Positions 12,869 through 62,162 of a stretch of 64,000 bases of DNA are shown piece by piece; the stretch's first letter is position 1; the number at the start of each line of letters is the position of its first letter. The position numbers and the translations under genes are program-made. The notes beneath the pieces were generated by a model that did no database searches, was not told where the DNA came from, and worked only from the letters and a program-made list of their open reading frames with translations. This stretch comes from Patescibacteria group bacterium (GTDB lineage: Bacteria > Patescibacteriota > UBA1384 > XYA2-FULL-43-10 > 1-14-0-10-43-13). The DNA lies in the NCBI GenBank assembly GCA_041674765.1, contig JBAYVE010000001.1, positions 2,321-66,320 on the forward strand, in the 5' to 3' direction.

Positions 12869-13292
12869 TAAAATAATAGCTTATTTAAGTAATAGTAATA
12901 ATAAGGGGTGTGGATACTGTGGGCAATTGAAAAAATCCTATGCCAGAGCTATAAACAAGAGCAATGATCTGTGGAAAAACCTGGAAATAACAAAGTTGAT
13001 AAACAGTTGATAAGTGACAAACTATTTTCAGAAATAGGTTAGAAGACCCTTTATACACTTTTTATCCACCAGGCTCTCTCGAATAACCGGTAGTTCTGTC
13101 CACAGGTCTTACCGGTAGGTGGAAAAAAGCCAATATAGAACAGCTAAATTGCGTCAGGACTTATTCACAGTTTTTATAGGAAGTGTTGATAACATCAAAG
13201 ACAGTTCGTAAAGTTGAAAAATTTATAAGTTGTTGAAGTGATCGCTTGTCTTAAAATTTTTTACTTTACGAATTAAGAATATGAGGAGCACA
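12869..13292. promoter_or_regulatory. Candidate oriC: dnaA-dnaN spacer with clustered DnaA-box-like 9-mers and an AT-rich stretch abutting dnaN
   Basis: TGTGGATAC at 12909-12917; TTATCCACC at 13062-13070; CTGTCCACA at 13096-13104; TTATTCACA at 13161-13169; TGTTGATAA at 13184-13192; AT-rich region 13200-13280. Confidence 0.5.
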
Positions 13293-14396: not shown

Positions 14397-14469
14397 TATT
14401 AACTAAAAAGTAAAAACGAAAAAGTTAAAATTAGTGTGTTCGTATCACAAACGAGTTATTTATATATTC

Positions 14470-14484
14470 AGCCACGAAGTGGCT
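14470..14484 (+). terminator. Perfect 6-bp hairpin AGCCAC-GAA-GTGGCT after dnaN; weak terminator (poor U-tract)
   Basis: Read in sequence; followed by cttttacattttt. Confidence 0.25.
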
Positions 14485-14516
14485 ACTAAACTTTTACATT
14501 TTTACCTTTAACAAAA

Positions 14517-26120: not shown

Positions 26121-26180
26121 GACCCCTCCACTTGATTGGGCTAGTATTATTTATAGGTTATCTGGTTTCAACCTCACGCT

Positions 26181-27446: not shown

Positions 27447-27479
27447 TTTTACCTTTACTTATCTTTCTTTAGTTGAGAG

Positions 27480-28691: not shown

Positions 28692-28695
28692 TCAT

Positions 28696-47021: not shown

Positions 47022-47447
47022 ATGAAAAATGAGAGGTATCAGGGTATTTTCCAATTTATAAAATTTGGGCTAGTTGGCGTGTCAAACACCGCCGTCGACT
47101 GGGTGATCTTTTTTCTCCTGACTATTACTTTTTTAAAGGAGGCCGAAACCTTTGCCAAAGCCCTTGCTTTTCTGGTCGCTATGTTGAACTCCTATCTCTG
47201 GAACACAATATGGACCTTCAAGAAGGAGTACAGGGATGCTACAGCGATAGAGGGTACAAATGTGAAGAGAGCTATCTTTATGAAATTTGCGGTTGTGAGC
47301 ATACTTGGCTGGGGGTTAAACACGCTCGCCTTTAATTTTACTCGCTTTGATCTCGATCAATCAAAAGTGATTGCATTAATCGTTGCTTCAGCGGTAGCCA
47401 CTCTGCTAAATTATTTTGCCAACAAACTCTGGACTTACAAGAAATAA
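47022..47447 (+). CDS. GtrA-family small membrane protein (polyprenyl-phosphate-sugar flippase-like)
   Basis: FIKFGLVGVSNTAVDWVIFFLL...KLWTYKK; 4 TM, about 140 aa. Confidence 0.6.
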   Translation: MKNERYQGIFQFIKFGLVGVSNTAVDWVIFFLLTITFLKEAETFAKALAFLVAMLNSYLWNTIWTFKKEYRDATAIEGTNVKRAIFMKFAVVSILGWGLNTLAFNFTRFDLDQSKVIALIVASAVATLLNYFANKLWTYKK

Positions 47448-47655: not shown

Positions 47656-48939
47656 ATGGCAAAGGAAAAAGGCAAGGTTGCAATTGTTGGTTTGGGATAC
47701 GTTGGTCTGCCGCTGGCTCTATTGGCCTCAAGAAAGGGATTTGAGGTTGTTGGTATTGATATTAATGAACAAAAGATTTCTCTCTTAAACGAACGCAAAA
47801 TGCCCTTTGTCGATGCAAAATTACAGAAAGAACTTTTGTTGACCAAGGCTAAATTCTATTCGGATATTGAAAAGATCTCCAGCGCAGAAACTATTGTAGT
47901 CTGCGTACCAACACCCGTTTATGACAATTATCTTCCCAATTTGGAACCAGTGAAGGGTGCAATGGATGGAATTGCCAAACAATTGAAGAAAGGGCAGCTG
48001 GTGATACTCGAGTCAACCGTCAACCCGGGTGTTTCCGATGAAGTAGCAATCCCAATTCTTGAGCAGAGCTCCGGTTTGAAGGTGAGCACAGACTTCTATT
48101 TTGCTCATTGTCCTGAGCGGATAAATCCTGGTGACGACAAATGGGATGTAGAAAATATTCCCCGTGTGGTTGGGGGGTCCGATAACCAAGCTTTGAAAAA
48201 GGCAACGACCTTCTACGAAGGGATTCTATCGGGCTCCGTAAAGCCGATGGGTTCTCTAAAAGAAGCAGAGGCCGTGAAAATTGTCGAAAATTCCTTCCGG
48301 GATATCAACATTGCCTTCGTCAATGAACTTGCTCAGTCATTTGCCCATTTGGGAATTGACGTCGTTAATGTCATCGAAGGTGCAGCCACTAAGCCTTTTT
48401 CATTTTTAGCCCATTTCCCTGGCTGTGGCGTTGGCGGCCATTGTATCCCAGTCGACCCGTACTATCTAATCGAATATGCCAAGAAAAATGGTTTCGAACA
48501 TGATTTTCTGCGTTTGGCTAGGAGAATAAACAACCAAATGCCGAGTTATGCCGTCAGCCAGATGGTCGAGGGGCTAAATGAGGCCAATAAATCAATCAAG
48601 GGTTCCGTAATTGCTGTTTTGGGTTTGGCTTATAAGTCGGGGATTGACGACTGCCGTGAGAGTCCCGCTTTCAAAATCATTGAGGAGTTAAAGGGATTGG
48701 GCGCTACTGTCAGGGTTTTTGATCCCTTCGTTATGGCCAAATCTGATGTTCAGAACTTGGATGAGGCTTTATCCGGTGCTACTGCCGTGATGGTCACAAC
48801 CGGCCATAAAATTTTCAAAGATTTGTTGCCTGATGATCTTTCCAAATACAAGATCAAGGTAGTGGTAGACGGACGGAATTGCCTAAATAAGGATAAGTTT
48901 AGAAACTCAAAATTAATTTATAAAGCCATAGGACGGTAA
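47656..48939 (+). CDS. Nucleotide-sugar dehydrogenase (UDP-glucose/GDP-mannose dehydrogenase family; possibly UDP-ManNAc or UDP-GlcNAc dehydrogenase)
   Basis: KVAIVGLGYVGLPLALLASRKGFEVVGIDIN (Rossmann); catalytic Cys region GCGVGGHCIPVDPYYL; TATAAT at 47618 upstream. Confidence 0.85.
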   Translation: MAKEKGKVAIVGLGYVGLPLALLASRKGFEVVGIDINEQKISLLNERKMPFVDAKLQKELLLTKAKFYSDIEKISSAETIVVCVPTPVYDNYLPNLEPVKGAMDGIAKQLKKGQLVILESTVNPGVSDEVAIPILEQSSGLKVSTDFYFAHCPERINPGDDKWDVENIPRVVGGSDNQALKKATTFYEGILSGSVKPMGSLKEAEAVKIVENSFRDINIAFVNELAQSFAHLGIDVVNVIEGAATKPFSFLAHFPGCGVGGHCIPVDPYYLIEYAKKNGFEHDFLRLARRINNQMPSYAVSQMVEGLNEANKSIKGSVIAVLGLAYKSGIDDCRESPAFKIIEELKGLGATVRVFDPFVMAKSDVQNLDEALSGATAVMVTTGHKIFKDLLPDDLSKYKIKVVVDGRNCLNKDKFRNSKLIYKAIGR

Positions 48940-50048
48940 TGTCTGAAGAAGTTCTTTGGAAAAAAATAGAGGGAGGGGTTTTTGTCATCGCCGAAATTGG
49001 CAAGAATTTCATCCAATCCGAAGAAGAGAAACCGGTTTTAGAATATTTGAAAAATGCCAAAAAACTTGCGTTGGCTGCCAAAGAAGCAGGTGCTGATGCT
49101 GTTAAGTTCCAGACCCATAATGTAGAAGATGAACAGATACAAACCAAAGTCGTCTCGCCTCATTTCAAAGGCATGGACCGCTACTCCTGGGTTAAACGCA
49201 ATACACTCGTAACTCCTTTGGAAGGTTTCTGGAAGCCGCTAAAAGCGTATTGTGACCAGATAGGAATCACGTTCTTTTCCACGCCGATGTCTCGTGGGGC
49301 TGCAGAGATTGTGGAGAAAATCGGTGTTGACCTTTGGAAGGTTGGATCAGGCGATATTTTAGACTTTGTCATGCTTGATTATTTGACTCAGACAAAAAAA
49401 CCGATCATTCTCTCAGCCGGAATGTCCACTTTGGAGGAGTTGGACCTTGCTTTGAATTTCCTGAAGAAAAGGAAGTCAAAATTCGCACTTTTGCACTGTG
49501 TTTCCCAATATCCCTGTCCTTTGGAGAAGCTAAATTTGTCGACGCTTGAATATTTCAAAGAGAGATATGAATGCCCGATCGGTTTTTCTGATCATTCGGT
49601 TGGTGAACAGGTGGCTCTTGCCGCAGTCAAGCAAGGCGCCAAAATTATTGAGAAACATTTTTCCTTCGGTCGTGATTTATGGGGCTCTGATCACAAAGTC
49701 TCGATGACACCTAAGGAGATGAAAGAGATGATAGACAAAATCCGTTTGCTGGAGAAGAAAATTTTTGTTGGGACGGACGAACAGTTGATTAAAAAAGCGA
49801 TGGGCAAGAAGGGAAAAATACTGCAGGAGGACGAAGCAGTCTTCCGTCCATTTTTTCGGAAGGCGCTAGTAGCCGGATGTGAGATTAAAAAGGGTGAGAA
49901 AATACAGCCGGAGATGATATATGCGATGAGACCGCAAGCATATATAGCCGGGCTTCACTCTGAAGAATATGAAAAAATAGTCGGTAAAGTTGCCAAAAAA
50001 AAATTTTCCAAATATGAGCCTTTTGATATTGATAGTATTTATAATTGA
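48939..50048 (+). CDS. neuB: NeuB-family nonulosonic acid synthase (N-acetylneuraminate/legionaminate synthase-like) with C-terminal SAF-like region
   Basis: VFVIAEIGKNF...AKEAGADAVKFQTH...; TIM-barrel NeuB signature; ATGA overlap with the upstream gene. Confidence 0.75.
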   Translation: MSEEVLWKKIEGGVFVIAEIGKNFIQSEEEKPVLEYLKNAKKLALAAKEAGADAVKFQTHNVEDEQIQTKVVSPHFKGMDRYSWVKRNTLVTPLEGFWKPLKAYCDQIGITFFSTPMSRGAAEIVEKIGVDLWKVGSGDILDFVMLDYLTQTKKPIILSAGMSTLEELDLALNFLKKRKSKFALLHCVSQYPCPLEKLNLSTLEYFKERYECPIGFSDHSVGEQVALAAVKQGAKIIEKHFSFGRDLWGSDHKVSMTPKEMKEMIDKIRLLEKKIFVGTDEQLIKKAMGKKGKILQEDEAVFRPFFRKALVAGCEIKKGEKIQPEMIYAMRPQAYIAGLHSEEYEKIVGKVAKKKFSKYEPFDIDSIYN

Positions 50049-51394
50049 CGGTTCATTCTATGAGCATTAAAAAACTGTTAGGTGAGATGGTAAAGATATT
50101 CATTAATTTTCTAAGAGTGTTAAAGAGTCATTGGTTTGTAATATTTTTGCTTGCTGTCGGTCTCTTTTATTCATTTTATAGCGCTGTTTTTCTGAAACCT
50201 CATGATGCAGACAATCTAATTGCGCTCTCCTTCGGCTTAAGAAACCCTTCTGAGTTTATTACGGGGTCTTTTACTTCATATTTTCCGGCTTACCGTCCGT
50301 TGGCACAGCTTATTATCTGGTTCCAGTATCAGATTTCAGGCGTAAGCTCTTCAGAGAGTTACTTTGTTATAAATATTCTAATTTGGCTTCTTTGCGCTGT
50401 TTTTGTATATCTGATTGTCCATAATCTAACAAAGCACAAAGTTGCCTCTGCTGCCGCTTCTTTATTACTGTTTCTCGATCAGCGATCTTTCAATTCGATT
50501 ATTTGGATAGGCGAAAGACAGAGTTCGTTAGCTGTTCTATTCGGTTTGGCTGCTTTGTTCGTCAGCCTTCGTACCAATCGATATAACATTGCTCGGATCT
50601 TCTTGATTATGTTTTTATTACTTGCTGCTATGCTGTGCAAAGAATATGGAATTGCTTTTGCCGGCGCAATTGTTCTTATCGCTTTTACTAAGAAAAAAGA
50701 CAAAGGCAAGTTAATCTTGGCCTCAATTCTTTCTGTTGTTATCTATTTCGTGATGCGTTTTGTTATCGCTAGTGGCGGGGGCCTGCGTAATTACTGCGAA
50801 GATATGGGCTATTTTCAAACGGTCGCATATATTTGTTATCAAAATTTGCCGCTGATGGTTGAGATCAAACAGCATATCTATAATACCGGTGCATCGTTCA
50901 TAGGCACCTTTATGCCATTGGCCTTCACCGATAAGGGGCAGATAATTCTATCGCCGGAAATAATTATTCATTATGCCCCGAGCTTTGTTCTGGCGTTGTG
51001 GGTAACTTGTCTTGCTATCTTTGCACTAATAAAGCAACACAAGAAGGCCTTACCCTTTTTGGGTTTAATAATCTTCTGTGCCATCCTAAATTTTATGCTT
51101 TACCGCGGACGCAATCAGTTGGTCGGAGTGACCGGCTTATCGATAATTTTCGGTTTGGGCCTCTCTGGTTTAAAGGTGAAGAAGCAATTAATACCGCTCT
51201 TTTGCTTTGTTATAGTTTTTTTAATACTTTTATTTCCGGGCAGGAGGCTTAGAAATGATATTCTTGAATACACGGCGCTTGAACCCAGCAATACCTACTG
51301 CTTGCAGGAGAGATACCCATTTGATATTAATAGGGATGTGGTTAGCAATTTAAATCAAAAATACAATCTAATATTTAGGGAATGTGATGACTAA
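50045..51394 (+). CDS. Polytopic membrane protein, putative GT-C glycosyltransferase (ArnT/PMT/GtrC-like)
   Basis: About 11 hydrophobic helices; acidic motif HDADN in the first extracytoplasmic loop, as in GT-C enzymes; sits within the glycan locus. Confidence 0.4.
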   Translation: MTVHSMSIKKLLGEMVKIFINFLRVLKSHWFVIFLLAVGLFYSFYSAVFLKPHDADNLIALSFGLRNPSEFITGSFTSYFPAYRPLAQLIIWFQYQISGVSSSESYFVINILIWLLCAVFVYLIVHNLTKHKVASAAASLLLFLDQRSFNSIIWIGERQSSLAVLFGLAALFVSLRTNRYNIARIFLIMFLLLAAMLCKEYGIAFAGAIVLIAFTKKKDKGKLILASILSVVIYFVMRFVIASGGGLRNYCEDMGYFQTVAYICYQNLPLMVEIKQHIYNTGASFIGTFMPLAFTDKGQIILSPEIIIHYAPSFVLALWVTCLAIFALIKQHKKALPFLGLIIFCAILNFMLYRGRNQLVGVTGLSIIFGLGLSGLKVKKQLIPLFCFVIVFLILLFPGRRLRNDILEYTALEPSNTYCLQERYPFDINRDVVSNLNQKYNLIFRECDD

Positions 51395-52166
51395 AAATAC
51401 CAAAGTAGTTATTCTGGCCGGAGGGCTTGGAACAAGGATAAGCGAAGAAACGACCCTAAAACCGAAACCAATGGTAGAGATCGGAGGCAAACCGATCCTC
51501 TGGCATATAATGAAGATCTATTCAGAACAGGGTTTCAATGATTTCATTATTTGCCTTGGCTACAAGGGTTTTTACATCAAAGAATGGTTTAGTCATTACT
51601 ATCTTCATCGGTCTGATGTTACCTTTGATTTTGAAAAGAACCAGACGATATTCCATAATCCCAAATCAGAAGATTGGAAGGTGACTCTAGCCGATACAGG
51701 GGAAGCAACGATGACGGGTGGCAGAATCAAGCGAATCAAGGATTATATTGGCGATAAGACTTTTATGCTGACCTATGGAGACGGGGTCAGCGATGTGGAT
51801 ATAAACAAGTTGCTGAAATTCCACAAAAGAAGCAAAAAGATTGCGACTATGACCTCAGTTATTCCGGAGGGCAGATTTGGTGCCCTGAAACTAATGGGAT
51901 CAAAAGTTAAAAATTTTGCTGAGAAGCACGATAACAAGTCAAGGATCAACGCCGGATTCTTTGTACTAGAACCAGCGATTTTTAACTATATTGAAGGAGA
52001 TGAAACTGTTTTCGAGCAGGAGCCACTGCAAAGGTTAGCGGAGGAAGGGCAGCTGGTAACTTTTAAACACGAAGGTTTCTGGAAGGCGATGGATAGTTTG
52101 TCGGATAAAAATAAATTGGAAGCGATGTGGGAAAACTGCGACGCTCCCTGGAAGACTTGGGAATAA
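51384..52166 (+). CDS. rfbF: Glucose-1-phosphate cytidylyltransferase (RfbF/DdhA)
   Basis: VVILAGGLGTRISEETTLKPKPMVEIGGKPILWHIMKIYSEQGFNDFIICLGYKG is near-identical in pattern to RfbF. Confidence 0.9.
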   Translation: MMTKNTKVVILAGGLGTRISEETTLKPKPMVEIGGKPILWHIMKIYSEQGFNDFIICLGYKGFYIKEWFSHYYLHRSDVTFDFEKNQTIFHNPKSEDWKVTLADTGEATMTGGRIKRIKDYIGDKTFMLTYGDGVSDVDINKLLKFHKRSKKIATMTSVIPEGRFGALKLMGSKVKNFAEKHDNKSRINAGFFVLEPAIFNYIEGDETVFEQEPLQRLAEEGQLVTFKHEGFWKAMDSLSDKNKLEAMWENCDAPWKTWE

Positions 52167-52167
52167 A

Positions 52168-53238
52168 ATGCAGATCACGGAGTTTATAAAAGGCAAAAAG
52201 TTTTTAGTAACAGGACATACCGGTTTTAAAGGGGCTTGGCTGACTAAAATTATTCTTCAGTTCGGCGGAGAGGTCTCAGGTTACGCCCTGGCGCCGAATA
52301 CGTCCCCTTCCCTTTTTGAGGCCTTAGGTTTGAAGTCTCAGATAGAGAATCATTTTGGTGATATTAGAGATCTCGAAAAATTTGATAAAGTAGTAGCTGC
52401 TTACAAGCCTGATGTTATTCTCCATCTTGCTGCTCAACCATTGGTTCGGGCATCTTATGATAAACCGGTTTATACTTTCGAGGCAAATGTTATTGGCACA
52501 GTTAACGTGCTAGAAAGTATCCGCAGAAATAAGATAAAATCCGGTGTCATTATCACGACCGACAAAGTATACAAAAATCTGGAGAAGGATGTTTTATTTA
52601 AAGAAGAAGATGCACTCGGGGGACACGATCCCTATAGTGCCAGCAAGGCTTGCACGGAGATAGTTGCTGATTCGTATATCAAATCATTTTTTTCAACCGA
52701 AAAGTATAAGAAAGATCATGAAACCCTAATAGCTACTGCCCGTGCCGGCAACGTCATTGGCGGGGGAGACTGGGCAGAGGATCGGCTGATTCCAGATGTC
52801 GTACGTTCACTTTTTACCACAAAGGAGACGCTGATCCTGAGAAATCCATCTGCAGTTAGGCCTTGGCAACATGTTTTCGAGTCACTTTATGGTTATCTGC
52901 TATTGGCTTGCCGGCTACACAACGGCGAAAAAAACTTTGTCGGCGCCTGGAATTTCGGCCCTGAAAAAAGTGATATGCTCAAGGTTGAAGAAATCATCAA
53001 GAAGCTTCTTGGAATTCTAGGCAATTATAAAGTCTGCCCTGACCCAGCCAAACCGGAGATGATGCTTTTGAAATTGGACAACAGTCGAGCCAAAGAACTT
53101 TTGAAATGGAAAACTACCTATAACATTGATCAGGCCGTAGAAACGACAGCGGCTTGGTATAGAGCATTTTTTAATGAGAAAAATAAAATAGGAGAATTTT
53201 CCGAGTCACAAATAAAAGAATATTTCCATAATAAATAA
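52168..53238 (+). CDS. rfbG: CDP-glucose 4,6-dehydratase (RfbG/DdhB)
   Basis: FIKGKKFLVTGHTGFKGAWLTKIIL...; YSASKAC; SDR extended family. Confidence 0.9.
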   Translation: MQITEFIKGKKFLVTGHTGFKGAWLTKIILQFGGEVSGYALAPNTSPSLFEALGLKSQIENHFGDIRDLEKFDKVVAAYKPDVILHLAAQPLVRASYDKPVYTFEANVIGTVNVLESIRRNKIKSGVIITTDKVYKNLEKDVLFKEEDALGGHDPYSASKACTEIVADSYIKSFFSTEKYKKDHETLIATARAGNVIGGGDWAEDRLIPDVVRSLFTTKETLILRNPSAVRPWQHVFESLYGYLLLACRLHNGEKNFVGAWNFGPEKSDMLKVEEIIKKLLGILGNYKVCPDPAKPEMMLLKLDNSRAKELLKWKTTYNIDQAVETTAAWYRAFFNEKNKIGEFSESQIKEYFHNK

Positions 53239-53247
53239 AGGTTAGAG

Positions 53248-54540
53248 ATGAAAAAAGATATCAGGAATTTAGTAAAAAAGCATTTCAAGGCTCAATCAAA
53301 TAACGGCGCGATACCTGTCAGCCGGAAGATTTTTGACGAGGAGGAGCTGGGAAATTTGATCGAGGCATCGCTAGAAGGATGGTGGACTGAAGGAAAATGG
53401 GCGGCCCTTTTTGAAGACAAACTGAAAGAGTTCTTGGGTGTGAAGTTTGTCCATGCGGTCAACTCCGGCTCATCAGCCAATTTGCTTGCCTTCTCAGCCC
53501 TTTGTTCGCCATCTTTAGGGGAACGCCAGTTAAAGCCAGGGGATGAGGTAATAACGCTTGCTGCCGGATTTCCAACGACTGTGAATCCGATCATCCAAAA
53601 CAGTTGTATCCCCGTCTTTGTTGATATTGATCTCGCAACGTATGATATTGATGTTTTGGAAATGGAAAAGGCTCTCTCCAAGAAGACAAAGGCAGTAATG
53701 ATCGCACATACACTTGGCAATCCTTTCAATATCAAATCGGTCAAAAAGTTTTGCCGTGAAAATAATCTCTGGCTGATCGAGGATAATTGCGATGCTTTGG
53801 GGTCGGAATACGCTGGTAAAAAAACAGGCACATTTGGTGATATTGCCACTCTTTCCTTCTATCCGGCTCATCATATCACGACCGCTGAGGGTGGCGCAGT
53901 TATCACCAATAACGCGAAACTATCTAAAATTCTTGTTTCTATCAGGGATTGGGGACGTCATTGTTGGTGTAAAACTGGCACTGACAATACCTGCAAAAAC
54001 CGTTTTAGTTGGCAATTAGGTCAGTTGCCAACCGGCTATGATCACAAATATATCTATGGTGAGCTCGGCTACAACCTAAAACTGAGCGATCTTCATGCTG
54101 CGATTGGTGTCGCTCAAATGGATAAATTAGATAATTTTATCAAAAAGAGGCGTGAAAATTTCAATTATTTATCTCAGAAGTTTGCTTCTTTGGACAATTA
54201 TTTTGCTCTTCCGAAGGCGACAAAAAACGCCGATCCTTCTTGGTTCGGCTATCTTTTGAGGATTACTGACGACAGCATTGACCGAGAAGATCTGCTTAGA
54301 TTCTTAGATAGTAAGAAGGTAGGGACCAGGCTACTTTTCGCCGGTAATTTGATTAAACAGCCGTATATTGCCGGAAACAAAGGCATCAAATATCGAAAAG
54401 TTGGGAACTTAAAAAATACTGACATAGTAATGAATAGAGTTTTTTGGATTGGTCTCTGGCCAGGGCTCAGCAAAGAAGAGCTTGATTATGCTGTAAAAAT
54501 GATCAGCGATTTTATAAGGGAAAAAAATGGCAAAAGTTAA
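53248..54540 (+). CDS. rfbH: CDP-6-deoxy-D-xylo-4-hexulose 3-dehydrase E1 (RfbH/DdhC), DegT/DnrJ/EryC1-type
   Basis: DegT family fold; active-site His replacing the PLP-Lys: SFYPAHHITTAEGG is diagnostic of E1; N-terminus like RfbH. Confidence 0.85.
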   Translation: MKKDIRNLVKKHFKAQSNNGAIPVSRKIFDEEELGNLIEASLEGWWTEGKWAALFEDKLKEFLGVKFVHAVNSGSSANLLAFSALCSPSLGERQLKPGDEVITLAAGFPTTVNPIIQNSCIPVFVDIDLATYDIDVLEMEKALSKKTKAVMIAHTLGNPFNIKSVKKFCRENNLWLIEDNCDALGSEYAGKKTGTFGDIATLSFYPAHHITTAEGGAVITNNAKLSKILVSIRDWGRHCWCKTGTDNTCKNRFSWQLGQLPTGYDHKYIYGELGYNLKLSDLHAAIGVAQMDKLDNFIKKRRENFNYLSQKFASLDNYFALPKATKNADPSWFGYLLRITDDSIDREDLLRFLDSKKVGTRLLFAGNLIKQPYIAGNKGIKYRKVGNLKNTDIVMNRVFWIGLWPGLSKEELDYAVKMISDFIREKNGKS

Positions 54541-56290
54541 ATTATCGGATTATGTTATATCTTTTTTGGCAGAGCATGAGGTTGGATATGTTTTTGGTTA
54601 TATCGGAGGCGCGATTACTCATCTTGTTGATTCGGCTAGCAAAAATCGAAAGATCAAATTTATTCAGGTTTATCATGAGCAGACGGCTTCTATTGCCGCA
54701 GAGGGATATGCAAGGCAAACTGGTAATATCGGCGTAGCAGCGGCGACTAGCGGACCTGGGGCTACCAATATGGTGACTGGCATCGCCGATGCATATTTCG
54801 ACTCAATCCCAACAATCTATCTTACCGGACAAGTAAACACTTATGAATATAAGTATGACAAAAAAGTCCGGCAGCAGGGCTTTCAAGAAACAGACATCGT
54901 CAGCATCGTCAAACCAGTTACGAAGTATGCCAAACTGGTTGATAAGCCAGAAGAGATCCGTTTCGAGCTAGAAAAAGCTTTCTATCTTGCAAAAGAGGGC
55001 AGGCCAGGGCCGGTTCTTTTGGATCTTCCGATGGATATTCAACGAGCAGAGATTGACCCTGGTAAATTGAAGAAGTTCATTCCGGAAAAATCCCTGCCAA
55101 AAGAGCTGAATCTTCTTAAGATCAAAAAAATGCTTGAAAAAAGCAGCCGGCCGATAATTTTGGCGGGCGGTGGTGCTGTAAATTCTGGGGCCGAGAAGGA
55201 GCTTTTCAGGTTTGCGAAGAAGAATAATATTCCCGTCGTCACTTCGTTGATGGGAAAAGGAAGTTTTCCTGAGGAGCACTCGCTTTTTATCGGCATGATC
55301 GGAAGCTATGGTAATCGTGCCGCGAACATCGCTTTATCGAACGCCGATCTTCTTTTGGCTATCGGTAGTCGGCTGGATACAAGACAGGTCGGTACAAACT
55401 TAAAAAGCTTTTTGAGGTCTGGCCGGATAGTACATATCGACATAGATAAAAATGAATTAAAACACAACAGGCTAAACGGCAGAATTACCTTAAATATCGA
55501 TGCAAAAAACTTTCTCAAAAAAATTAATGATCTAAAGATTGAAAAAAGGGATAGGCCTCTGTGGGTCTCTTACATTAAAAAAATAACGGCTATTTATAAT
55601 CAGAAGGTTGAATCGGAGAGAAGATGCCCGAACAAGACCCCATATGACCTAATGGAAGTATTGAACAAGGTGTCTCTAAAAGACCAGATTTTCACTGTCG
55701 ATATTGGCCAAAATCAGATGTTTGCCGGCCAAGGATTAACAATCAGGGAAAGGCAGCGCTTTTATACCAGCGGCGGAATGGCGCCAATGGGTTATGCTAT
55801 GCCCGTGGCGATCGGAGCCAGTTTTGCTGACAAAAAGAAAAAAATTATTGCCATCACTGGGGATGGAGGTTTTCATATCTCAACGCAATCGCTCATGCTA
55901 ATTTCGCAATATAACCTTCCGATAAAGGTAATAATTCTCAATAATGCCTCTCTTGGGATGATAGTCCAATTTCAGGATTTGTATTTCGACTCAAATGAAG
56001 TAGCAACTACCAAATCCGGAGGCTATTTAGTACCAGATTTTAAAGCCATGTCAGCTGCTTACGGTTTGCCATTTATCAAAATTGGCGATTTGTCTAGGCA
56101 GAGGAAGAGATTAGAGGAGGCTTTGGCCTCTCCTGGCGGCATGATTATCGAGGTAAATACTGGCGGGAAAACAATAGTAGCTCCAAAGCTTGAGGTCAAT
56201 TGTCCGATCGAAGATATGAACCCAAGGCTAGATAAGGCAGAGCTGAGAGATAATATGATTATTGATTTATTCGGCGAAGGCAAGGAGTAG
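54527..56290 (+). CDS. ThDP-dependent acetolactate-synthase-like enzyme (IlvB/AHAS large-subunit family); candidate YerE-like sugar C-branching enzyme
   Basis: N-terminal PYR domain GYIGGAITHLVD...GYARQTGNIGVAAATSGPGATNMVTGIADAYFDSIPTIYLTGQV; ThDP motif ITGDGGFHIS...NNASLGM; embedded between rfbH and a reductase. Confidence 0.8.
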   Translation: MAKVKLSDYVISFLAEHEVGYVFGYIGGAITHLVDSASKNRKIKFIQVYHEQTASIAAEGYARQTGNIGVAAATSGPGATNMVTGIADAYFDSIPTIYLTGQVNTYEYKYDKKVRQQGFQETDIVSIVKPVTKYAKLVDKPEEIRFELEKAFYLAKEGRPGPVLLDLPMDIQRAEIDPGKLKKFIPEKSLPKELNLLKIKKMLEKSSRPIILAGGGAVNSGAEKELFRFAKKNNIPVVTSLMGKGSFPEEHSLFIGMIGSYGNRAANIALSNADLLLAIGSRLDTRQVGTNLKSFLRSGRIVHIDIDKNELKHNRLNGRITLNIDAKNFLKKINDLKIEKRDRPLWVSYIKKITAIYNQKVESERRCPNKTPYDLMEVLNKVSLKDQIFTVDIGQNQMFAGQGLTIRERQRFYTSGGMAPMGYAMPVAIGASFADKKKKIIAITGDGGFHISTQSLMLISQYNLPIKVIILNNASLGMIVQFQDLYFDSNEVATTKSGGYLVPDFKAMSAAYGLPFIKIGDLSRQRKRLEEALASPGGMIIEVNTGGKTIVAPKLEVNCPIEDMNPRLDKAELRDNMIIDLFGEGKE

Positions 56291-57235
56291 ATGAAAATTT
56301 GTATTTTAGGTGCGTCCAGCCATATTGCTCGAGGATTAGTTTTTAATTTTCTCCAAGAAGGAGAGGATGATCTCTACCTATTTGATAAGGGTATTTATTG
56401 TTTCAATAACTATACTGCCGACTTAAGCTCAAAGAAAGTCAGAAAAATCGGTCTATCGGATAAGTTTGAGTCAGTCAATTTTGACGCTATCATAAATTGT
56501 ATAGGGATTGGTGATCCGGCGAAACTGAAGCAGGCCGGTGGATTTATCTTCGACTTGACGGAAAAATTTGACAACAAGATTTTGAAGTATTTAGAAAAAC
56601 ACAAAAGAACGCTTTATATCAATTTAAGCAGCGGCGCCGTTTTCGGAAAATCTGTGAGCAAACCAATTAACAATTCGACGCTTACAACTCTTGATTTAAA
56701 CAATATCCAACCGGAGGATTATTATTCAATCACAAAAATTAATTGTGAGGCTAAGCACCGAGCACATCCGGATCTTAGAATTATCGATCTTCGTGTTTTC
56801 TCATATTTTAGCCGGTTCATCTCGTTGGAGACTGGTTTTTTCATGACTGATGTCATCAACGCACTTTTGGAGGACAGAGTTTTAGAGACACAAAGTGGTG
56901 ATATGGTTCGAGACTTTATTCATCCGAGTGATTTCTTCGCTTTAGTGAAGAAATGCCTTGCGGCTGATGATATTAATGCAGCCTTCGACGTAGTAAGCAG
57001 AAAGCCGGTCAAAAAGACTGAAATTCTAATACATTTCAAGGACAGGTTCGGTCTAAAGTATAAATTCGTGGATAAAGAAGGTTATATTGAGGCAACTGGT
57101 GCTAAGAATTCTTATTTTTCAAAAAATTTGAAGGCCAAAGAGATTCTTGATTTTATTCCGGAGCATAGCTCGCTTCGAGCTCTCGAAATGGAAACGGAAA
57201 CAATATTATTAGGAGCAAAATGCAAAAGAGATTAA
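56291..57235 (+). CDS. NAD(P)-dependent epimerase/reductase-like Rossmann protein (short-chain family)
   Basis: MKICILGASSHIARGL (GxxGxxG-like); YSITKINCEAK (YxxxK). Confidence 0.5.
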   Translation: MKICILGASSHIARGLVFNFLQEGEDDLYLFDKGIYCFNNYTADLSSKKVRKIGLSDKFESVNFDAIINCIGIGDPAKLKQAGGFIFDLTEKFDNKILKYLEKHKRTLYINLSSGAVFGKSVSKPINNSTLTTLDLNNIQPEDYYSITKINCEAKHRAHPDLRIIDLRVFSYFSRFISLETGFFMTDVINALLEDRVLETQSGDMVRDFIHPSDFFALVKKCLAADDINAAFDVVSRKPVKKTEILIHFKDRFGLKYKFVDKEGYIEATGAKNSYFSKNLKAKEILDFIPEHSSLRALEMETETILLGAKCKRD

Positions 57236-58170
57236 TCTCAATCGTAACTCCCTGTTATTGCGAGGAAAAAAATGTAGTTGAAGTCAGCAAGCGCGTGGCC
57301 AAAGTTTTCAAGATTCTAGATAAATATGAATACGAACATATTTTCATCGATAATTGTTCTCCTGATGGTACCGTGAAGATTCTCAAAGGTCTGGCAGCCC
57401 AAGATAAGCATATTAAACTTATCTTAAATGCCAAAAACTTCGGTCATATCCGTTCACCTTTTTATGGCCTTCTGCAGGCTAAGGGAGATGCAGTCATTTT
57501 GCTAGTTTCTGATCTCCAGGATCCGCCTGAGATGATTATTGATTTGATCAAAAAATGGGAAGAGGGATTCAAGATCGTCATCGGGACTAAAAACAAGAGT
57601 GAAGAGAGTCCTGTCATGTTTGCTCTACGGAAGCTCTATTACGGCATGATTAAAAAGATCTCTGAAACCGAGCATATCAAGAACTTTACCGGTTTTGGTC
57701 TCTACGATCAAAAATTTATTGAGGTTTTGCGCCAACTGGATGATCCTTATCCGTATTTTAGAGGTTTGGTAGCTGAGCTTGGTTTCGAACGGGCAGAAAT
57801 AAACTACACACAACCCAAGAGAAAGAGAGGTAAAACCAACAACAATTTTTATACCCTTTATGATATCGGTATGCTGGGCTTCGTCAATCATTCTAAGGTG
57901 CCGATCAGGATCGCCAGTTTTATCGGATTTTGTGCTGCTATCGCCAGTCTCTTGATCGCAGTCGGTTACTTGATTTACAAGATAATGTTTTGGGATAGAT
58001 TTGATTTGGGAACTGCGCCAATGGTAATCGGCCTCTTCTTTTTCGCCTCCGTCCAACTCTTTTTCATCGGTATCATCGGCGAATATATTGGAGCTATTTT
58101 TACCCAAGTTCGAAATCGGCCCCTAGTAATTGAAAGAGAGAGAGTGAATTTTGATAAAAAAAGTTCCTAG
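57220..58170 (+). CDS. gtrB: GT2 polyprenyl-phosphate glycosyltransferase (GtrB/ArnC/DPM1-like) with C-terminal TM helices
   Basis: ISIVTPCYCEEKNV...IFIDNCSPDGT...VSDLQDPPE (DxD-like); two C-terminal TMs. Confidence 0.8.
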   Translation: MQKRLISIVTPCYCEEKNVVEVSKRVAKVFKILDKYEYEHIFIDNCSPDGTVKILKGLAAQDKHIKLILNAKNFGHIRSPFYGLLQAKGDAVILLVSDLQDPPEMIIDLIKKWEEGFKIVIGTKNKSEESPVMFALRKLYYGMIKKISETEHIKNFTGFGLYDQKFIEVLRQLDDPYPYFRGLVAELGFERAEINYTQPKRKRGKTNNNFYTLYDIGMLGFVNHSKVPIRIASFIGFCAAIASLLIAVGYLIYKIMFWDRFDLGTAPMVIGLFFFASVQLFFIGIIGEYIGAIFTQVRNRPLVIERERVNFDKKSS

Positions 58171-58525
58171 TTCGGAATTTATCCGCTTTGTCCTAGTCGG
58201 CATCTTAAATACTCTCTTTGGTTACAGCATCTTTGCCTTGCTTATCTTTTTGCAGTTAAACTACGCCGCCGCTTTGCTGCTGGCCACTATTATGGGTGTT
58301 TTTTTCAATTTCAAGACGATCGGAAAGTTGGTTTTCAAATCCAGCGATAACAAATTGATTTTCCGGTTTGCCGGAGTTTATACTGTGGCGTACCTTTTGA
58401 ACTTAGGATTAATTTTTGCACTTAGTTTTTGGATCTCAAACCGCTATTTAGAGCAGGCCATACTAGCTTTTCCTGTCGCACTTTTTTCATATTATCTAAA
58501 TAAGCGTCTTGTCTTTGCTCGGTAA
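58151..58525 (+). CDS. gtrA: GtrA-family small membrane protein (second copy)
   Basis: FIRFVLVGILNTLFGYSIFALLIF...NKRLVFAR; overlaps the gtrB stop. Confidence 0.6.
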   Translation: MIKKVPSSEFIRFVLVGILNTLFGYSIFALLIFLQLNYAAALLLATIMGVFFNFKTIGKLVFKSSDNKLIFRFAGVYTVAYLLNLGLIFALSFWISNRYLEQAILAFPVALFSYYLNKRLVFAR

Positions 58526-58599: not shown

Positions 58600-58627
58600 T
58601 TGACAAAATGACCATAAATGCTATTAT
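58600..58627 (+). promoter_or_regulatory. sigma70-like promoter (TTGACA, 16 nt, TATTAT) at the edge of the GC-rich island
   Basis: Hexamers read directly; followed by hairpin CTCGGC-N12-GCCGAG and SD AGGAGG. Confidence 0.35.
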
Positions 58628-58674: not shown

Positions 58675-59298
58675 TTGGAAAACATTATCAATGTTATCCG
58701 GCAGGTATTATCCTTGCTGGGGCAAATACCCAACATGGCGATTTGTCAGCAAAGCTCGTATGATCGAGCGATGGAGCTTATCAAAAAGACCGGCGGCTTG
58801 CTGCTCGGTCTAGTCCCCAGAGGTATGCCTCTTGGGACTGAACTGTTTGAGGGCGTTGCCGCCCTTTCCATATCCGTAGCCTACGAAATGGTCGTTTTCC
58901 GAACAGGCCAAGACGGTCGAGTCGAGGTCTATATGACGAAGCGCACGGATGATGACCCGGCTTACCCGGGTGAATGGCACTGTCCGGGGACGGTCAGAAG
59001 GCCTTGGGAATCGCCGGCGGACGCGATCGAGCGCCTGGCGCAACGGGAGTTTGGCGCTCGTATTATCAGCTATAAAATCGTCGGGATGATCGACGATTAT
59101 GCCGAGAAGCGGGGGCATTTCTACACTCCAGTTTGTATCGGCCATCTTGACGGCGAGCCTACCAGCCCTCGAGGGGATTGGTTCCCGGTCGATCAGCTTC
59201 CCGAGAACACGGTCAAGCATCATTCCGTGGGTGTTGTGCCGTGCGCTCTAGAGTGGCGGGATCTTCCGGATATTCCGATCATGGAGATCCGAGCATAA
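58675..59298 (+). CDS. NUDIX-like hydrolase-fold protein (degenerate Nudix box), encoded in a GC-rich island; probable TTG start with perfect SD
   Basis: AGGAGG 6 nt upstream of TTG 58675 (ORF track begins at 58618); ...GRVEVYMTKRTDDDPAYPGEWHCPGTVRRPWESPADAIERLAQREFGA resembles the Nudix fold but departs from GX5EX7REUXEEXGU. Confidence 0.35.
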   Translation: MENIINVIRQVLSLLGQIPNMAICQQSSYDRAMELIKKTGGLLLGLVPRGMPLGTELFEGVAALSISVAYEMVVFRTGQDGRVEVYMTKRTDDDPAYPGEWHCPGTVRRPWESPADAIERLAQREFGARIISYKIVGMIDDYAEKRGHFYTPVCIGHLDGEPTSPRGDWFPVDQLPENTVKHHSVGVVPCALEWRDLPDIPIMEIRA

Positions 59299-59318
59299 CG
59301 CCGGAACATGTGTATGGG

Positions 59319-59347
59319 GGCGGCTGTAAAAGGCTGCCTCTTTTTTT
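59319..59347 (+). terminator. Rho-independent terminator (GGCGGC-tgtaaaag-GCTGCC then TCTTTTTTT)
   Basis: 6-bp stem with one G-U pair plus T7 run immediately after the NUDIX-like gene. Confidence 0.55.
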
Positions 59348-59456: not shown

Positions 59457-60614
59457 ATGGCAGAGAAAAGAAAAGTCTGTGTAGTTGTGGCCAGCCGGGC
59501 AAACTACGGACGAGTTAAATATTTGATGAAGGCGGTCAAGGAGCATCCACAACTAGAACTCCAGTTGATTGTTGGGGCCTCTACTTTGCTCTACCGCTTC
59601 GGTAAAGCAGTCGATATTATCAAGAAGGACGGTTTTACGCCTTCGAGAAATCTTTATTATGTCGTTGAAGGTGATACTTTAGCGACGCAATCGAAGTCTG
59701 CAGGGCTTGGTATTCTCGAACTTTCCTCCGCTTTTGAGGATCTGCAGCCCGATGTGATTGTTTCTGTCGCTGATCGTTTTGAGACGATGGCCACGGCTGT
59801 TGCCGCTACCTATCAAAATATTCCATTAGCCCATCTCCAAGGAGGAGAGATTAGCGGAAATATTGATGATCGAGTTCGACATGCCATAACAAAGCTGGCC
59901 GATATCCATTTTGTTGCCAGCGATGAGTCAAGAAATCGTGTTATCAAAATGGGTGAAGACCCAGATTATGTTTTAAATTATGGCTGTCCGGCAATGGACA
60001 TTTTGAAAAACGAAGATCTGGCAATCAGTAATCAAGGCATGGTTCAATATGGCGGGGTCGGATCTAAGGTTGATTGGAGAAAACCTTATGTTCTAATGGT
60101 TCAGCATCCTGTCACTACCTCATACGGCAAGGGCTTCGATCAAGTCAATGAAACTCTTTGCGCGTTGGAAAAATTTCCGGAACTTCAAAAGATTGTACTC
60201 TGGCCGAATATTGATGCCGGCACTGATGATGTATCCAAAGCGATTAGAATATTCCGTGAAAAGCATATGGAGGATAACTTCCATTACTTCCGCAACTTTT
60301 CACCAGAGGATTATGCCCGTGTTCTAAATAATGCTCTCTGCGCTGTCGGCAACTCCAGCAGTTTTATTAGAGAAGCTGCTTATCTTGGCGTTCCTGCCGT
60401 GATTGTTGGCGATCGTCAGAGGGGAAGAGAGCACGGCTCAAATGTTGTCTTTGCTGACTACAATTCAGAGAATATCGGCAAAAATGTCACGAGTCAGTTG
60501 AATCACGGACGTTATAAGAGCGACCAAATCTTTGGCCGGGGCGATGCCGGTAAGAGGATTGCGGATAAATTAGCGACTGTTAAATTTACCGCCATTAAAA
60601 AGATAATGTATTAA
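59457..60614 (+). CDS. neuC: UDP-N-acetylglucosamine 2-epimerase (hydrolysing), NeuC/LegG-type
   Basis: KVCVVVASRANYGRVKYLM...PDVIVSVADRFETMATAVAATYQNIPLAHLQGGEISGNIDD... Confidence 0.8.
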   Translation: MAEKRKVCVVVASRANYGRVKYLMKAVKEHPQLELQLIVGASTLLYRFGKAVDIIKKDGFTPSRNLYYVVEGDTLATQSKSAGLGILELSSAFEDLQPDVIVSVADRFETMATAVAATYQNIPLAHLQGGEISGNIDDRVRHAITKLADIHFVASDESRNRVIKMGEDPDYVLNYGCPAMDILKNEDLAISNQGMVQYGGVGSKVDWRKPYVLMVQHPVTTSYGKGFDQVNETLCALEKFPELQKIVLWPNIDAGTDDVSKAIRIFREKHMEDNFHYFRNFSPEDYARVLNNALCAVGNSSSFIREAAYLGVPAVIVGDRQRGREHGSNVVFADYNSENIGKNVTSQLNHGRYKSDQIFGRGDAGKRIADKLATVKFTAIKKIMY

Positions 60615-60621
60615 GGATTTT

Positions 60622-61473
60622 ATGAAAAAAGGCATGACTGGGGATGAATCCTTATTTGAAAAGAACTGGCAGACTAGAGAAGAGAGCTACTACAATCATT
60701 GGACTAAGGATGAACCAGCCAATCAAATTCAGTTCGCCTTTCGTAACCATTGGGAAGTTTTTCAGGAATTGATGAGGGATAATCATTTTAATAAAGGAAG
60801 ACGCTGCTTAGAAGTGGGCTGTGGGCGAGGCAGTATCTCGGCTTATTTTGCAGATGCGGGATTCGATTGTACCTTGCTTGATGTGTCTCCAGACGTAATA
60901 GAGATTGCCAGAAAAATTTATAAGAAGAATAATTTGAAAGCGAAGTTTGTTGTCGGGGATGCCAACGATCTGCCATTCTCTGAAGGATCGTTTGATATTG
61001 TAGTTTCGATTGGACTTTTGGAACATTTCGAAAATTTTGATAAAACAATTGGCGAACAAGTCAAAATGTTGGCGCCAGGAGGATTATTTCTTGGCTATAT
61101 AGTGCCAAAATATACGGACAATATCCAAAAAGATTATGAATGGATTAACCAGGTACTAAAGGGATATAAAAAGGAAGGTCGCATAGCCTCGAAAGAGGAG
61201 GTCTTCCGCTCAGACACACCCTCGTCAGTTTATTTGAAAGCAATGAAAGCATCGGGCCTAGAGGCATCAAAGTCGAGCGGTATTTATTCTGTTCCAATGA
61301 TTTCTCACTCCATCGATTTCCCTTTTTCTTTAATGCCCGAGGAAAGTGAAAAAGCACTGCTCTTGCATTTTAAAAAGTTATTCGCAGAGAGAAAGAAAAA
61401 ATCTGATAAGCATCCTTGGCTTTGCAAAGAGGGCTTCGGCCAGTCATTTCTAGTTTGGGGATATAAGAAATGA
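60622..61473 (+). CDS. Class I SAM-dependent methyltransferase
   Basis: RCLEVGCGRGSISAYFADAGFDCTLLDVSPDVIEIARK...DLPFSEGSFDIVVSIGLLEHF. Confidence 0.8.
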   Translation: MKKGMTGDESLFEKNWQTREESYYNHWTKDEPANQIQFAFRNHWEVFQELMRDNHFNKGRRCLEVGCGRGSISAYFADAGFDCTLLDVSPDVIEIARKIYKKNNLKAKFVVGDANDLPFSEGSFDIVVSIGLLEHFENFDKTIGEQVKMLAPGGLFLGYIVPKYTDNIQKDYEWINQVLKGYKKEGRIASKEEVFRSDTPSSVYLKAMKASGLEASKSSGIYSVPMISHSIDFPFSLMPEESEKALLLHFKKLFAERKKKSDKHPWLCKEGFGQSFLVWGYKK

Positions 61474-62162
61474 AATATTTGGTCATTATTCCAGCGAGAG
61501 GCGGCTCCAAAGGCATCAAGGATAAAAATATTATTGATGTAAAAGGTAAGCCTCTGATTTGGTACTCTATTAATGCTGCGAATAAGTTAGTATCCGAGGG
61601 CCTGGTGTCGGAAGTTGTTGTCTCTACAGATAATGAAAAGATTGCAGAGATTGCTCGAGAGTGCGGAGGCAATGTGCCTTTTTTGCGTCCGGCCGAGATA
61701 TCGGGAGATAAGGCAAAATCCATTGATTTTGTTCTACACGCTCTAAATTTTTATGAACAGCAGGGCTTGTCTTTCGACGCGGTAATCATCCTTCAACCAA
61801 TAGCTCCACTTCGAACTTTTGAGGATATAAAAGAGGCAGTAATTCTTTTCAATAAGAACAAAGTCGATTCTCTCATATCTGTTTATGAGGAGGAGGGTAT
61901 CGATGATTTGGTCCTTTATTATAGAGACGGGGACAGGGCGGTTCCGCTTAATGCTAATCACAACAATGGAAACCGTCGTCAAGATGCCCCCAAAATTTAT
62001 ATGCGGAATGGAGCCATTTATATTGCTAGGACCGATTTTATTAAGACTGGGCACAAGCTAATCGCCGATCAGCCTTTGATGTTAGAAATGCCAAAAGAGA
62101 GATCTATCAATCTCGATGAACCCAAGGATTTAGAGAAATTGAAAGAAATTTTATGCAAATAG
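61470..62162 (+). CDS. neuA: Acylneuraminate cytidylyltransferase family (CMP-NeuAc/CMP-legionaminate/pseudaminate synthetase)
   Basis: VIIPARGGSKGIKDKNI...KPLIWYSI...VVVSTDNEKIAEIA... Confidence 0.85.
   Translation: MKYLVIIPARGGSKGIKDKNIIDVKGKPLIWYSINAANKLVSEGLVSEVVVSTDNEKIAEIARECGGNVPFLRPAEISGDKAKSIDFVLHALNFYEQQGLSFDAVIILQPIAPLRTFEDIKEAVILFNKNKVDSLISVYEEEGIDDLVLYYRDGDRAVPLNANHNNGNRRQDAPKIYMRNGAIYIARTDFIKTGHKLIADQPLMLEMPKERSINLDEPKDLEKLKEILCK

Follow-up and report, generated by a model that had tools for sequence, protein, structure and literature searches.

Candidate Cassette for a Branched Dideoxy Sugar

We analyzed a 64,000-nucleotide stretch of DNA from a Patescibacteria group bacterium (NCBI GenBank assembly GCA_041674765.1, contig JBAYVE010000001.1, positions 2,321 to 66,320 of the forward strand), hereafter called the window. 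It carries a gene cassette that probably makes and delivers, as a self-contained unit, a C-4-branched 3,6-dideoxyhexose. Five open reading frames (ORFs) on the + strand were confirmed as its biosynthetic core, at 51384–52166, 52168–53238, 53248–54540, 54527–56290, and 56291–57235, and they overlap or abut one another. They encode RfbF, RfbG, RfbH, a thiamin diphosphate (ThDP)-dependent enzyme, and a short-chain dehydrogenase/reductase (SDR). When genes were called independently on the source contig, the RfbF gene started at 51387 rather than 51384. The ThDP gene starts 14 nt ahead of the rfbH stop, and the SDR gene starts one base past the ThDP gene stop. The core lies in a tightly packed operon with overlaps throughout, which spans 47656 to 58525, is encoded on the same strand, and also holds genes for a candidate delivery route. 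GC content over the finding was 0.39–0.43, the same as in the rest of the window. The reading is carried by the family identities and catalytic motifs of the encoded proteins, the tightness of the operon, and a gene neighborhood that is conserved in other genomes.

Entry Enzymes and the E1 Dehydrase

The scores of the first three enzymes all exceeded the NCBI curated equivalog cut-offs. These were RfbF/DdhA, the glucose-1-phosphate cytidylyltransferase (51384..52166; TIGR02623, 396 bits against a cut-off of 300); RfbG/DdhB, the cytidine diphosphate (CDP)-glucose 4,6-dehydratase (52168..53238; TIGR02622, 441 bits against 278); and RfbH/DdhC, also called E1, the pyridoxamine 5'-phosphate (PMP)- and [2Fe-2S]-dependent CDP-4-keto-6-deoxyglucose 3-dehydrase (53248..54540; NF011936, 670 bits against 423). 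The original prediction, which was made from the sequence without database searches, had taken these genes as the canonical entry to CDP-3,6-dideoxyhexoses, and the profile matches agree with it.

RfbH was 57.6% identical to the E1 of Yersinia pseudotuberculosis (PDB 3bcx), and its SFYPAHHIT motif aligned residue for residue with SFYPAHHIT of the Yersinia enzyme. The active-site histidine that stands in place of lysine, by which E1 had been recognized at the outset, is H208; it corresponds to Yersinia His220, the first histidine of the motif, which is a lysine in the H220K entry 3bb8. In addition, C181, C239, C241, and C249 of RfbH aligned with C193, C251, C253, and C261 of the Yersinia protein, which gives the exact C-X57-C-X1-C-X7-C spacing of the [2Fe-2S] cluster. 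An RfbH without the E1 histidine would have spoken for a normal aminotransferase; here both the histidine and the four cysteines are present, and the corresponding residues were invariant in 53/53 RfbH homologues of the clade. The E1 histidine and the iron-sulfur cysteines are the features that set E1 and SpnQ apart from ColD and from aminotransferases (PMC8987622). Chemistry of the ColD type, which is independent of the E3 reductase, was considered and rejected because RfbH keeps all of the iron-sulfur cysteines that ColD lacks (PMC8987622).

The ThDP-Dependent Enzyme

The ThDP-dependent enzyme (54527..56290) is a predicted YerE-like carboligase. The description of this protein as a full-length ThDP enzyme resembling the large subunit of acetohydroxyacid synthase (AHAS), with a GDGG...NN motif and a start inside the rfbH gene, was borne out. 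All three TPP_enzyme domains were present, with GDGG at residues 445–448 and NN at residues 472–473. G445-D446-G447-G448, N472-N473, and the catalytic glutamate E51 were invariant across 27 relatives. Like the large subunits IlvB, IlvG, and IlvI of biosynthetic AHAS, the protein has the three-domain ThDP fold, the GDG...NN motif, the catalytic glutamate, and the middle (FAD-type) domain.

Given these likenesses, the protein could be an ordinary acetolactate synthase for branched-chain amino acids that merely sits beside sugar genes. Its best NCBIfam matches by name are indeed acetolactate synthase models, and many databases label its relatives as acetolactate synthase. However, its TIGR00118 score was 494 bits, under the cut-off of 538, and it fell far under the cut-offs of the other AHAS models. 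Among solved structures the best match was 5AHK (412 bits), followed by plant AHAS (321), E. coli IlvB (300), and 8rph (298); identity was 40% to 5AHK and 32–34% to the E. coli enzymes (IlvB/IlvI). We take 5AHK to be PpYerE of Pseudomonas protegens. Its chain opens with a 20-residue tag, and once this tag is subtracted Val479, the residue mutated in PpYerE (PMC12247030), falls at 'LGMV', which supports the assignment; looking for '5AHK' in the literature brought up no pertinent text.

An alignment of the window enzyme, 5AHK, E. coli IlvB, IlvI, and Gcl, and 80 genome relatives was used to build a neighbor-joining tree with 200 bootstraps. The window enzyme and 5AHK shared a clade in 192/200 bootstraps, and E. 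coli IlvB and IlvI were excluded from it in 200/200. Within that clade the window enzyme belongs to a separate large subclade with the motif LGMI[TV]QFQ. Position 482 was phenylalanine in 76/76 YerE-like sequences, including 5AHK, whereas the seven AHAS-side sequences carried tryptophan ('QWQ') in 3/7, including E. coli IlvI, and glutamine (E. coli IlvB), leucine, or valine in the others. No ilvN/ilvH-like or ilvC gene was found nearby among the window ORFs; instead, rfbH, the ThDP gene, and the SDR gene are coupled in translation, and the sugar-gene neighborhood of the ThDP gene is kept across phyla. A grouping with true acetolactate synthases beside ilvN/ilvC, which would have undone the original prediction, was thus not what the tree and the neighborhood gave. 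In our judgment the amino acid reading is extremely unlikely, and the identification as an acetolactate synthase is effectively refuted by these sequence comparisons, which support a predicted YerE-like carboligase that would add an acyl branch at C-4.

The Reductase

The SDR (56291..57235) occupies the position of yerF. It is an extended SDR by its Pfam match (PF01370, Epimerase), which was the only informative one; no informative sequence match was found in the PDB (best E = 9e-4) or in NCBIfam. S113/S114 and Y145-x3-K149 were present, and this catalytic set of Ser and Tyr-x3-Lys is kept in the family. An AlphaFold2 model of the protein (pLDDT 91.6) showed the fold of extended SDRs that act on nucleoside diphosphate (NDP)-sugars, at 13–18% identity in the fold search.

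A more specific indication came from two metagenome loci, L129 and L165, whose ThDP genes were 70–71% identical to 5AHK. The gene order of L165 is E3-RfbF-RfbG-RfbH-ThDP-SDR and fully canonical; L129 is similar, with RfbF not visible as a separate ORF. Both fit the set of ddhA-D, yerE, and yerF described for the Pseudomonas WCS417 locus. The SDR found downstream of the PpYerE-type genes in these canonical loci shares 36–41% identity (E about 1e-75) with the window SDR, which is therefore the orthologue of the yerF-position gene. The Rossmann reductase noted behind the ThDP gene as YerF-like is in keeping with this. The side-chain reduction step was biochemically uncharacterized in Yersinia as of 2016 (PMC4753412).

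Homologues of the SDR also follow split transketolases, a second type of ThDP branching enzyme, in a Parcubacteria locus (L087, 5307–6989) and in L161 (4603–6350). L161 is otherwise identical to the RfbF-RfbG-RfbH-[ThDP]-SDR-GtrA-GT2 cassette but has the split transketolase where the YerE-like gene would be. Split transketolases of this kind have so far been predicted only in Streptomyces, according to a review. The occurrence of the SDR after two kinds of ThDP branching enzyme fits a putative role as a reductase of the branch ketone.

Conservation of the Gene Neighborhood

Scanning one genome per species gave 80 related loci, 73 of which had a ThDP gene at least 40% identical to that of the window. 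RfbF, RfbG, and RfbH lay within five genes of the ThDP gene in 48, 52, and 50 of the 73 loci, respectively, many of the remaining loci being on incomplete contigs. This association is far beyond chance. The hosts include Bacteroidota, Spirochaetota, Fusobacteriota, Patescibacteria (Moranbacteria, Saccharibacteria, and WS2), and two metagenome-assembled genomes (MAGs) of DPANN archaea. The same eight-gene order as in the window was observed in a WS2 MAG (L030) and, minus GtrA, in a Saccharibacteria MAG (L014).

The two DPANN MAGs (L004, Nanoarchaeia, and L067, Woesearchaeota) carry RfbF-RfbG-ThDP-RfbH genes. The L004 enzyme was 59% identical to that of the window and was among its nearest neighbors in the tree, which hints either at mis-binning or at gene exchange of ultra-small bacteria with archaea.

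Delivery Genes

The glycosyltransferase family 2 (GT2) gene (57220..58170) lies directly 3' of the SDR gene, and its product resembles the polyprenyl-phosphate glycosyltransferases GtrB and ArnC. It matched GtrB (PDB 5ekp) with 160 bits over residues 6–304, ArnC with 103 bits, and the PgfS model with 174 bits. The protein has an 'SDLQDPPE' motif, of the D-x-D-L-Q-D-P-P-E type, and two hydrophobic C-terminal stretches. The last gene of the operon (58151..58525) overlaps the GT2 stop by 20 nt and encodes a small membrane protein of the GtrA family (PF04138, 59.6 bits against a cut-off of 26), a candidate flippase.

The GT2 gene accompanies the sugar genes in other organisms as well. In 13 genome loci, which come from several phyla, an orthologue with 46–70% identity adjoins the cassette. 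A metagenome search that started from the GT2 protein gave 31 loci of at least 8 kb, and 26 of them had RfbH, the ThDP enzyme, RfbF, or the SDR beside the GT2 orthologue; the ThDP enzyme was present in 21. GtrA and a GT2 orthologue are likewise present in L129 and L165, the loci of the PpYerE type.

Many of these metagenome loci (L134, L141, L166, L123, L151, and others) hold a second ThDP family of about 600 residues, which has 'Y.SIR.TQ' in place of 'LGMI.QFQ', is 32–37% identical to the window enzyme, and occurs with RfbH and NeuB-like genes. In L149 a DmpG/HMGL-type aldolase (4566–5588) stands beside a ThDP enzyme of this second family, an arrangement that follows the logic of erwiniose clusters.

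Directly 5' of RfbF, a 449-residue membrane protein (50045..51394) belongs to a rare subfamily for which only 14 relatives were found. Its sequence gave a weak PMT_2 match, and NCBI names it 'GT39'. An AlphaFold2 model was obtained with a pLDDT of 86.7 and a pTM of 0.90, and its top Foldseek matches were PglB, AglB, DPY19, ArnT, and STT3 (probability 1.0, TM about 0.5). Because of these matches, the modeled protein is assigned the glycosyltransferase C (GT-C) fold. In the first loop, D54-A-D56-N57 (D-x-D-N) is conserved. The partner membrane proteins are not the same in all lineages: some match PMT_2, PTPS_related, or GtrII weakly and others match nothing, and several large membrane proteins beside GT2 in other loci gave no Pfam match. 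Variation of the third component between lineages is also a feature of Gtr systems.

Together, the flanking GT-C, GT2, and GtrA genes imply, at the level of sequence, a putative transfer by lipid carrier outside the membrane. A UppP protein, which scored just under the curated cut-offs, is encoded in the window and suggests that the undecaprenyl carrier is in use.

Absence of the E3 Reductase

The [2Fe-2S] flavoprotein E3, which is the partner of E1 in Yersinia, had been noted as missing from the window, and several searches agreed. None of the ORFs or reading frames of the window contained a plant-type ferredoxin motif, nothing in the window matched an FNR-like (ferredoxin reductase) profile, and a tblastn search of the window with two genuine E3 sequences taken from related loci gave no match (best E = 2.5). 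A scan of all six frames of the window for 4Fe-4S and 2Fe-2S motifs gave only spurious matches inside other genes. The same methods do detect the genuine E3 (Fer2 + FAD_binding_6 + NAD_binding_1) in L129 and L165.

A search for ddhD/ascD had been proposed with the original prediction. It found no E3 gene in the window or within ±10 kb of any of the 80 related genome loci, and it covered the window and these loci rather than the whole genome. The single ferredoxin-motif match among the 80 loci (L070) was rejected since on reading it proved to be an unrelated protein. As E3 was not found near any of the related loci, its absence from the locus is a trait of the clade and no peculiarity of the present genome. 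A neighboring E3 gene is a property of the system, not of the E1 protein itself. In seven loci (L002, 2753–3439; L007, 9302–9991; L032; L068; L061; L017; and L011), an FNR-like protein of 228–256 residues was observed beside rfbH. These proteins are homologous to the reductase part of E3, with FAD and NAD domains only and no [2Fe-2S] ferredoxin domain.

A precedent exists in SpnQ, which works with general ferredoxin or flavodoxin reductase pairs and has no dedicated E3 (PMC8987622). Because no E3 is encoded at the locus, and by analogy with SpnQ, the electrons for RfbH most likely come from a housekeeping ferredoxin or flavodoxin.

Proposed Pathway

In the proposed route, RfbF would form CDP-glucose and RfbG would convert it to CDP-4-keto-6-deoxyglucose. 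RfbH/E1, with PMP and its [2Fe-2S] cluster, would then take off the 3-hydroxyl to give CDP-4-keto-3,6-dideoxyglucose. The YerE-like enzyme would decarboxylate a 2-keto acid, most economically pyruvate, and acylate the C-4 carbonyl to leave a tertiary alcohol, after which the SDR would reduce the side-chain ketone to a yersiniose-type 4-C-(1-hydroxyethyl) sugar. GT2 would transfer this sugar from CDP to undecaprenyl phosphate, GtrA would flip the lipid-linked sugar across the membrane, and the GT-C protein would attach it to a surface polymer or protein outside. The substrates of these steps, the length of the branch, the electron donor, the acceptor, and the use of a CDP-sugar by GT2 are all inferred.

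The chemistry of the core has a model in YerE, which draws activated acetaldehyde from pyruvate and attaches it to CDP-4-keto-3,6-dideoxyglucose, a YerF-type reductase coming next; the literature treats this gene logic as diagnostic. The 5AHK clade, the gene order, and the orthology of the SDR all support the YerE/YerF reading of the locus. For the yersiniose-like two-carbon branch that had been proposed along with it, the standing is more modest: a branch derived from pyruvate would be the default and most economical reading, since no DmpG/HMGL-type aldolase was found in the operon, an enzyme that is the mark of long-branch clusters and provides the longer donors in those of the erwiniose type (PMC9306805). 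As for the acceptor, Patescibacteria are thought to lack lipopolysaccharide (LPS), so a wall polymer, an S-layer, or a pilin is more likely than LPS.

Alternative Explanations

Several points weigh against the proposed route. Membership of the ThDP enzyme among YerE proteins rests on 5AHK and gene order, with the sequences of Yersinia YerE/YerF, ErwE/ErwF, MyGE, and JanthE outside the comparison; the tree was built by neighbor-joining only; and the donor specificity of the enzyme is unreadable from sequence. The branch could be longer or more functionalized than two carbons, as in erwiniose or caryophyllose, with the 2-keto acid supplied by the NeuB-family synthase of the same operon or by the downstream 2-hydroxyacid dehydrogenase (2-Hacid_dh, 62153–63082). 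ErwE and MyGE use hydroxylated keto acids of C4–C8, and ErwE rejects pyruvate (PMC9306805). NeuB-type enzymes yield 3-deoxy-2-keto acids, so that NeuB could in principle provide a longer donor, and NeuB-like genes recur beside ThDP and GT2 genes in the metagenome loci. NeuB nevertheless lies outside the conserved core and is absent from L005 and L030, and here a NeuC equivalog and a PseF-like cytidylyltransferase explain it as part of a nonulosonic-acid pathway. Most loci of the window type lack a gene for making such a donor, and the aldolase is missing as already noted, so we regard a longer branch as rather unlikely and retain the branch from pyruvate. The lack of any E3 or ferredoxin-like gene in the window, which leaves the E1 step without a known partner, raises another concern: RfbH might not deoxygenate C-3, in which case CDP-4-keto-6-deoxyglucose itself would be branched or RfbH would transaminate, and no 3,6-dideoxy sugar would result. 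The absence of E3 from all 80 related loci is in line with this, as is the finding that SpnQ becomes an aminotransferase when it has no reductase (PMC8987622). Yet SpnQ does work with general ferredoxin or flavodoxin systems, E1 itself has no transaminase activity under the same conditions (PMC8987622), and the invariance of His220 and the four cysteines in all 53 homologues argues for a working iron-sulfur dehydrase. A route that skips the deoxygenation is therefore improbable, and deoxygenation at C-3 is kept as the preferred reading.

The delivery steps face a different difficulty. Our literature searches found no GtrB-type enzyme that uses a CDP-sugar and no link between YerE and GtrB, and we know of no description of a GtrB-type enzyme with a CDP-sugar donor. 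The GT2, GtrA, and GT-C proteins might then handle a common sugar, such as uridine diphosphate (UDP)-glucose or UDP-GlcNAc, while the branched CDP-sugar is used by a cytoplasmic glycosyltransferase elsewhere. As far as is known, the characterized enzymes of the GtrB/ArnC/DPMS type all use UDP- or guanosine diphosphate (GDP)-sugars. Distant members of the GT-C family also occur away from the cassette (L168, 9001–10329; L169, 4247–5674; L170, 3782–5239), so the idea that this family is a constant companion of the cassette was rejected, and the GT-C family may recognize a common acceptor rather than a common sugar. For the same reason the GT-C step is less secure than the GT2 step and is the weakest link of the proposed route. 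The GT2 orthologue group (57–70% identity), on the other hand, is tied to E1, ThDP, and SDR genes across many phyla, and the tie persists in L161, where the split transketolase replaces the ThDP enzyme; moreover, the conserved eight-gene cassette contains no other glycosyltransferase. We thus consider handling of a common sugar by these proteins unlikely, if still deserving of weight, and favor transfer of the branched sugar by GT2. One of the distant GT-C members was observed among NeuB and CTP_transf_3 genes, and another beside an epimerase and a short GT2.

Comparison with Known Systems

The closest characterized counterparts are the yersiniose A pathway of Yersinia pseudotuberculosis O:VI (ddhDABC, yerE, and yerF) and the Pseudomonas systems (PpYerE and WCS417). 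The same enzyme families and the same logic are found here, the ThDP enzyme clusters with 5AHK, and the SDR is orthologous to the yerF-position gene of PpYerE-type loci. Unlike these systems, the window locus has no E3/ddhD, its ThDP enzyme shares no more than 40% identity with 5AHK and falls in a separate large subclade, its host belongs to Patescibacteria, and delivery would proceed by GT2, GtrA, and GT-C rather than by an O-unit glycosyltransferase with Wzx/Wzy. ErwE/ErwF of erwiniose and MyGE/MMAR_2332 of gastriose and caryophyllose likewise pair a YerE-like enzyme with a reductase on CDP-4-keto-3,6-dideoxyglucose (PMC9306805). The clusters of these sugars, however, carry an aldolase/dehydrogenase pair that makes a hydroxylated keto-acid donor; such a pair is missing from the window operon, whereas L149 does carry it.

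SpnQ, the thymidine diphosphate (TDP)-4-keto-6-deoxyglucose 3-dehydrase of spinosyn biosynthesis, is also an E1-type iron-sulfur 3-dehydrase with no dedicated E3 (PMC8987622). It acts on a TDP-sugar in actinomycete secondary metabolism, whereas RfbH belongs to a CDP-linked pathway and closely resembles the E3-dependent Yersinia E1. As a biosynthetic AHAS large subunit the ThDP enzyme would be exceptional, since it scores below the family cut-off, has F482, lacks a regulatory subunit, stands among sugar genes, and forms part of a separate clade. The delivery genes resemble the three-component systems GtrA/GtrB/GtrX, ArnC/ArnT, and CsbB/GtcA/YfhO (PMC8035078), in which a GT2 with two C-terminal helices and a GtrA-family protein accompany a GT-C transferase. 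Here, in contrast to those systems, the implied donor would be a CDP-activated branched dideoxyhexose, not a UDP- or GDP-sugar, and the GT-C subfamily is tiny (14 proteins).

The biosynthetic core is known YerE/YerF chemistry and will be no surprise to specialists; what is new is the missing E3 together with the route by GtrB-like, GtrA, and GT-C proteins. The GT2 and its orthologues could be the first CDP-sugar polyprenyl-phosphate glycosyltransferases, and with them part of a widespread, E3-independent, Gtr-like route that exposes ThDP-branched 3,6-dideoxyhexoses, also on cells presumed to lack LPS, such as Patescibacteria and DPANN archaea; we put this forward tentatively. Branched 3,6-dideoxy sugars are rare and strongly antigenic surface markers. 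To our knowledge, their recorded occurrence is so far limited to mycobacterial glycolipids and the LPS of a small number of Gram-negative bacteria. Here a compact operon is predicted to encode yersiniose-type chemistry in a bacterium that is ultra-small and probably lives as an episymbiont, with lipid-carrier delivery attached to the pathway, a GT2 family that tracks E1 and ThDP genes across phyla, and a large clade of such pathways that does without the textbook E3 reductase. Were it confirmed, a sugar of this kind on Patescibacteria and DPANN archaea might shape contact with host cells. Glycosylation in Patescibacteria is essentially unexplored (PMC11623550). The locus offers candidate enzymes as well, namely a GtrB-like enzyme that would use a CDP-sugar, an E1 that probably draws its electrons from a donor other than E3, and a fresh set of YerE-like catalysts, which are sought for making chiral tertiary alcohols (PMC12247030).

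A Second Sugar Pathway and Other Features of the Window

Interleaved with the cassette are the genes of a second sugar pathway. They encode a NeuB-family nonulosonic-acid synthase (48939..50048; PF03102, 5.6e-71; TIGR03569, 271 bits, under the cut-off of 400) and, in a stretch at 59457–63082 that runs on past the window end, a NeuC equivalog (367 bits, over the cut-off of 236), a methyltransferase dependent on S-adenosylmethionine, the PseF-like cytidylyltransferase, and the 2-hydroxyacid dehydrogenase mentioned above. A Capsule_synth protein is next on the contig. The gene content suggests that the putative product is a modified nonulosonic acid. NeuB of the operon, with the downstream NeuC and cytidine monophosphate (CMP)-sugar synthetase, probably makes up this second pathway. 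The first operon gene, an NDP-sugar dehydrogenase (47656..48939; TIGR03026, 417 bits against a cut-off of 190) whose stop abuts the next start, probably belongs to it as well.

On the + strand 3' of the operon, a Nudix-like protein (58675..59298; PF00293, 29 bits) is encoded in its own transcription unit, bracketed by a strong promoter-like site (58600–58627) and a terminator-like hairpin (59316–59341). Its Nudix box is degenerate, and the stretch is slightly GC-richer. Related cassettes contain homologues: those of L003 and L025 are placed between RfbG and RfbH, others occur in L014 and L104, and in L092 a Nudix-like domain is fused to a GtrA-like N-terminus. This recurrence within related cassettes suggests a role in the same sugar system. 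Upstream of the operon, a second GtrA-family protein (PF04138) is encoded on the + strand at 47022..47447.

Elsewhere, the window encodes dnaA-dnaN-recF (11474–15575), type IV secretion- and pilus-like genes, MurE, and a FemX-like gene in addition to UppP. A 2847-residue ORF on the - strand (16174–24717) gave no Pfam match; next to it, likewise on the - strand, come M23 peptidase-, CHAP/SLT-, and TraG/VirB4-like genes (24714–30732), which give the stretch the character of a type IV secretion-like block. The sole Rfam match in the window was a tRNA-Ser(CGA) at 8491–8580. A XerC/D-type recombinase (39983–41032) lies where gene orientation and GC skew switch, at about 39–42 kb.

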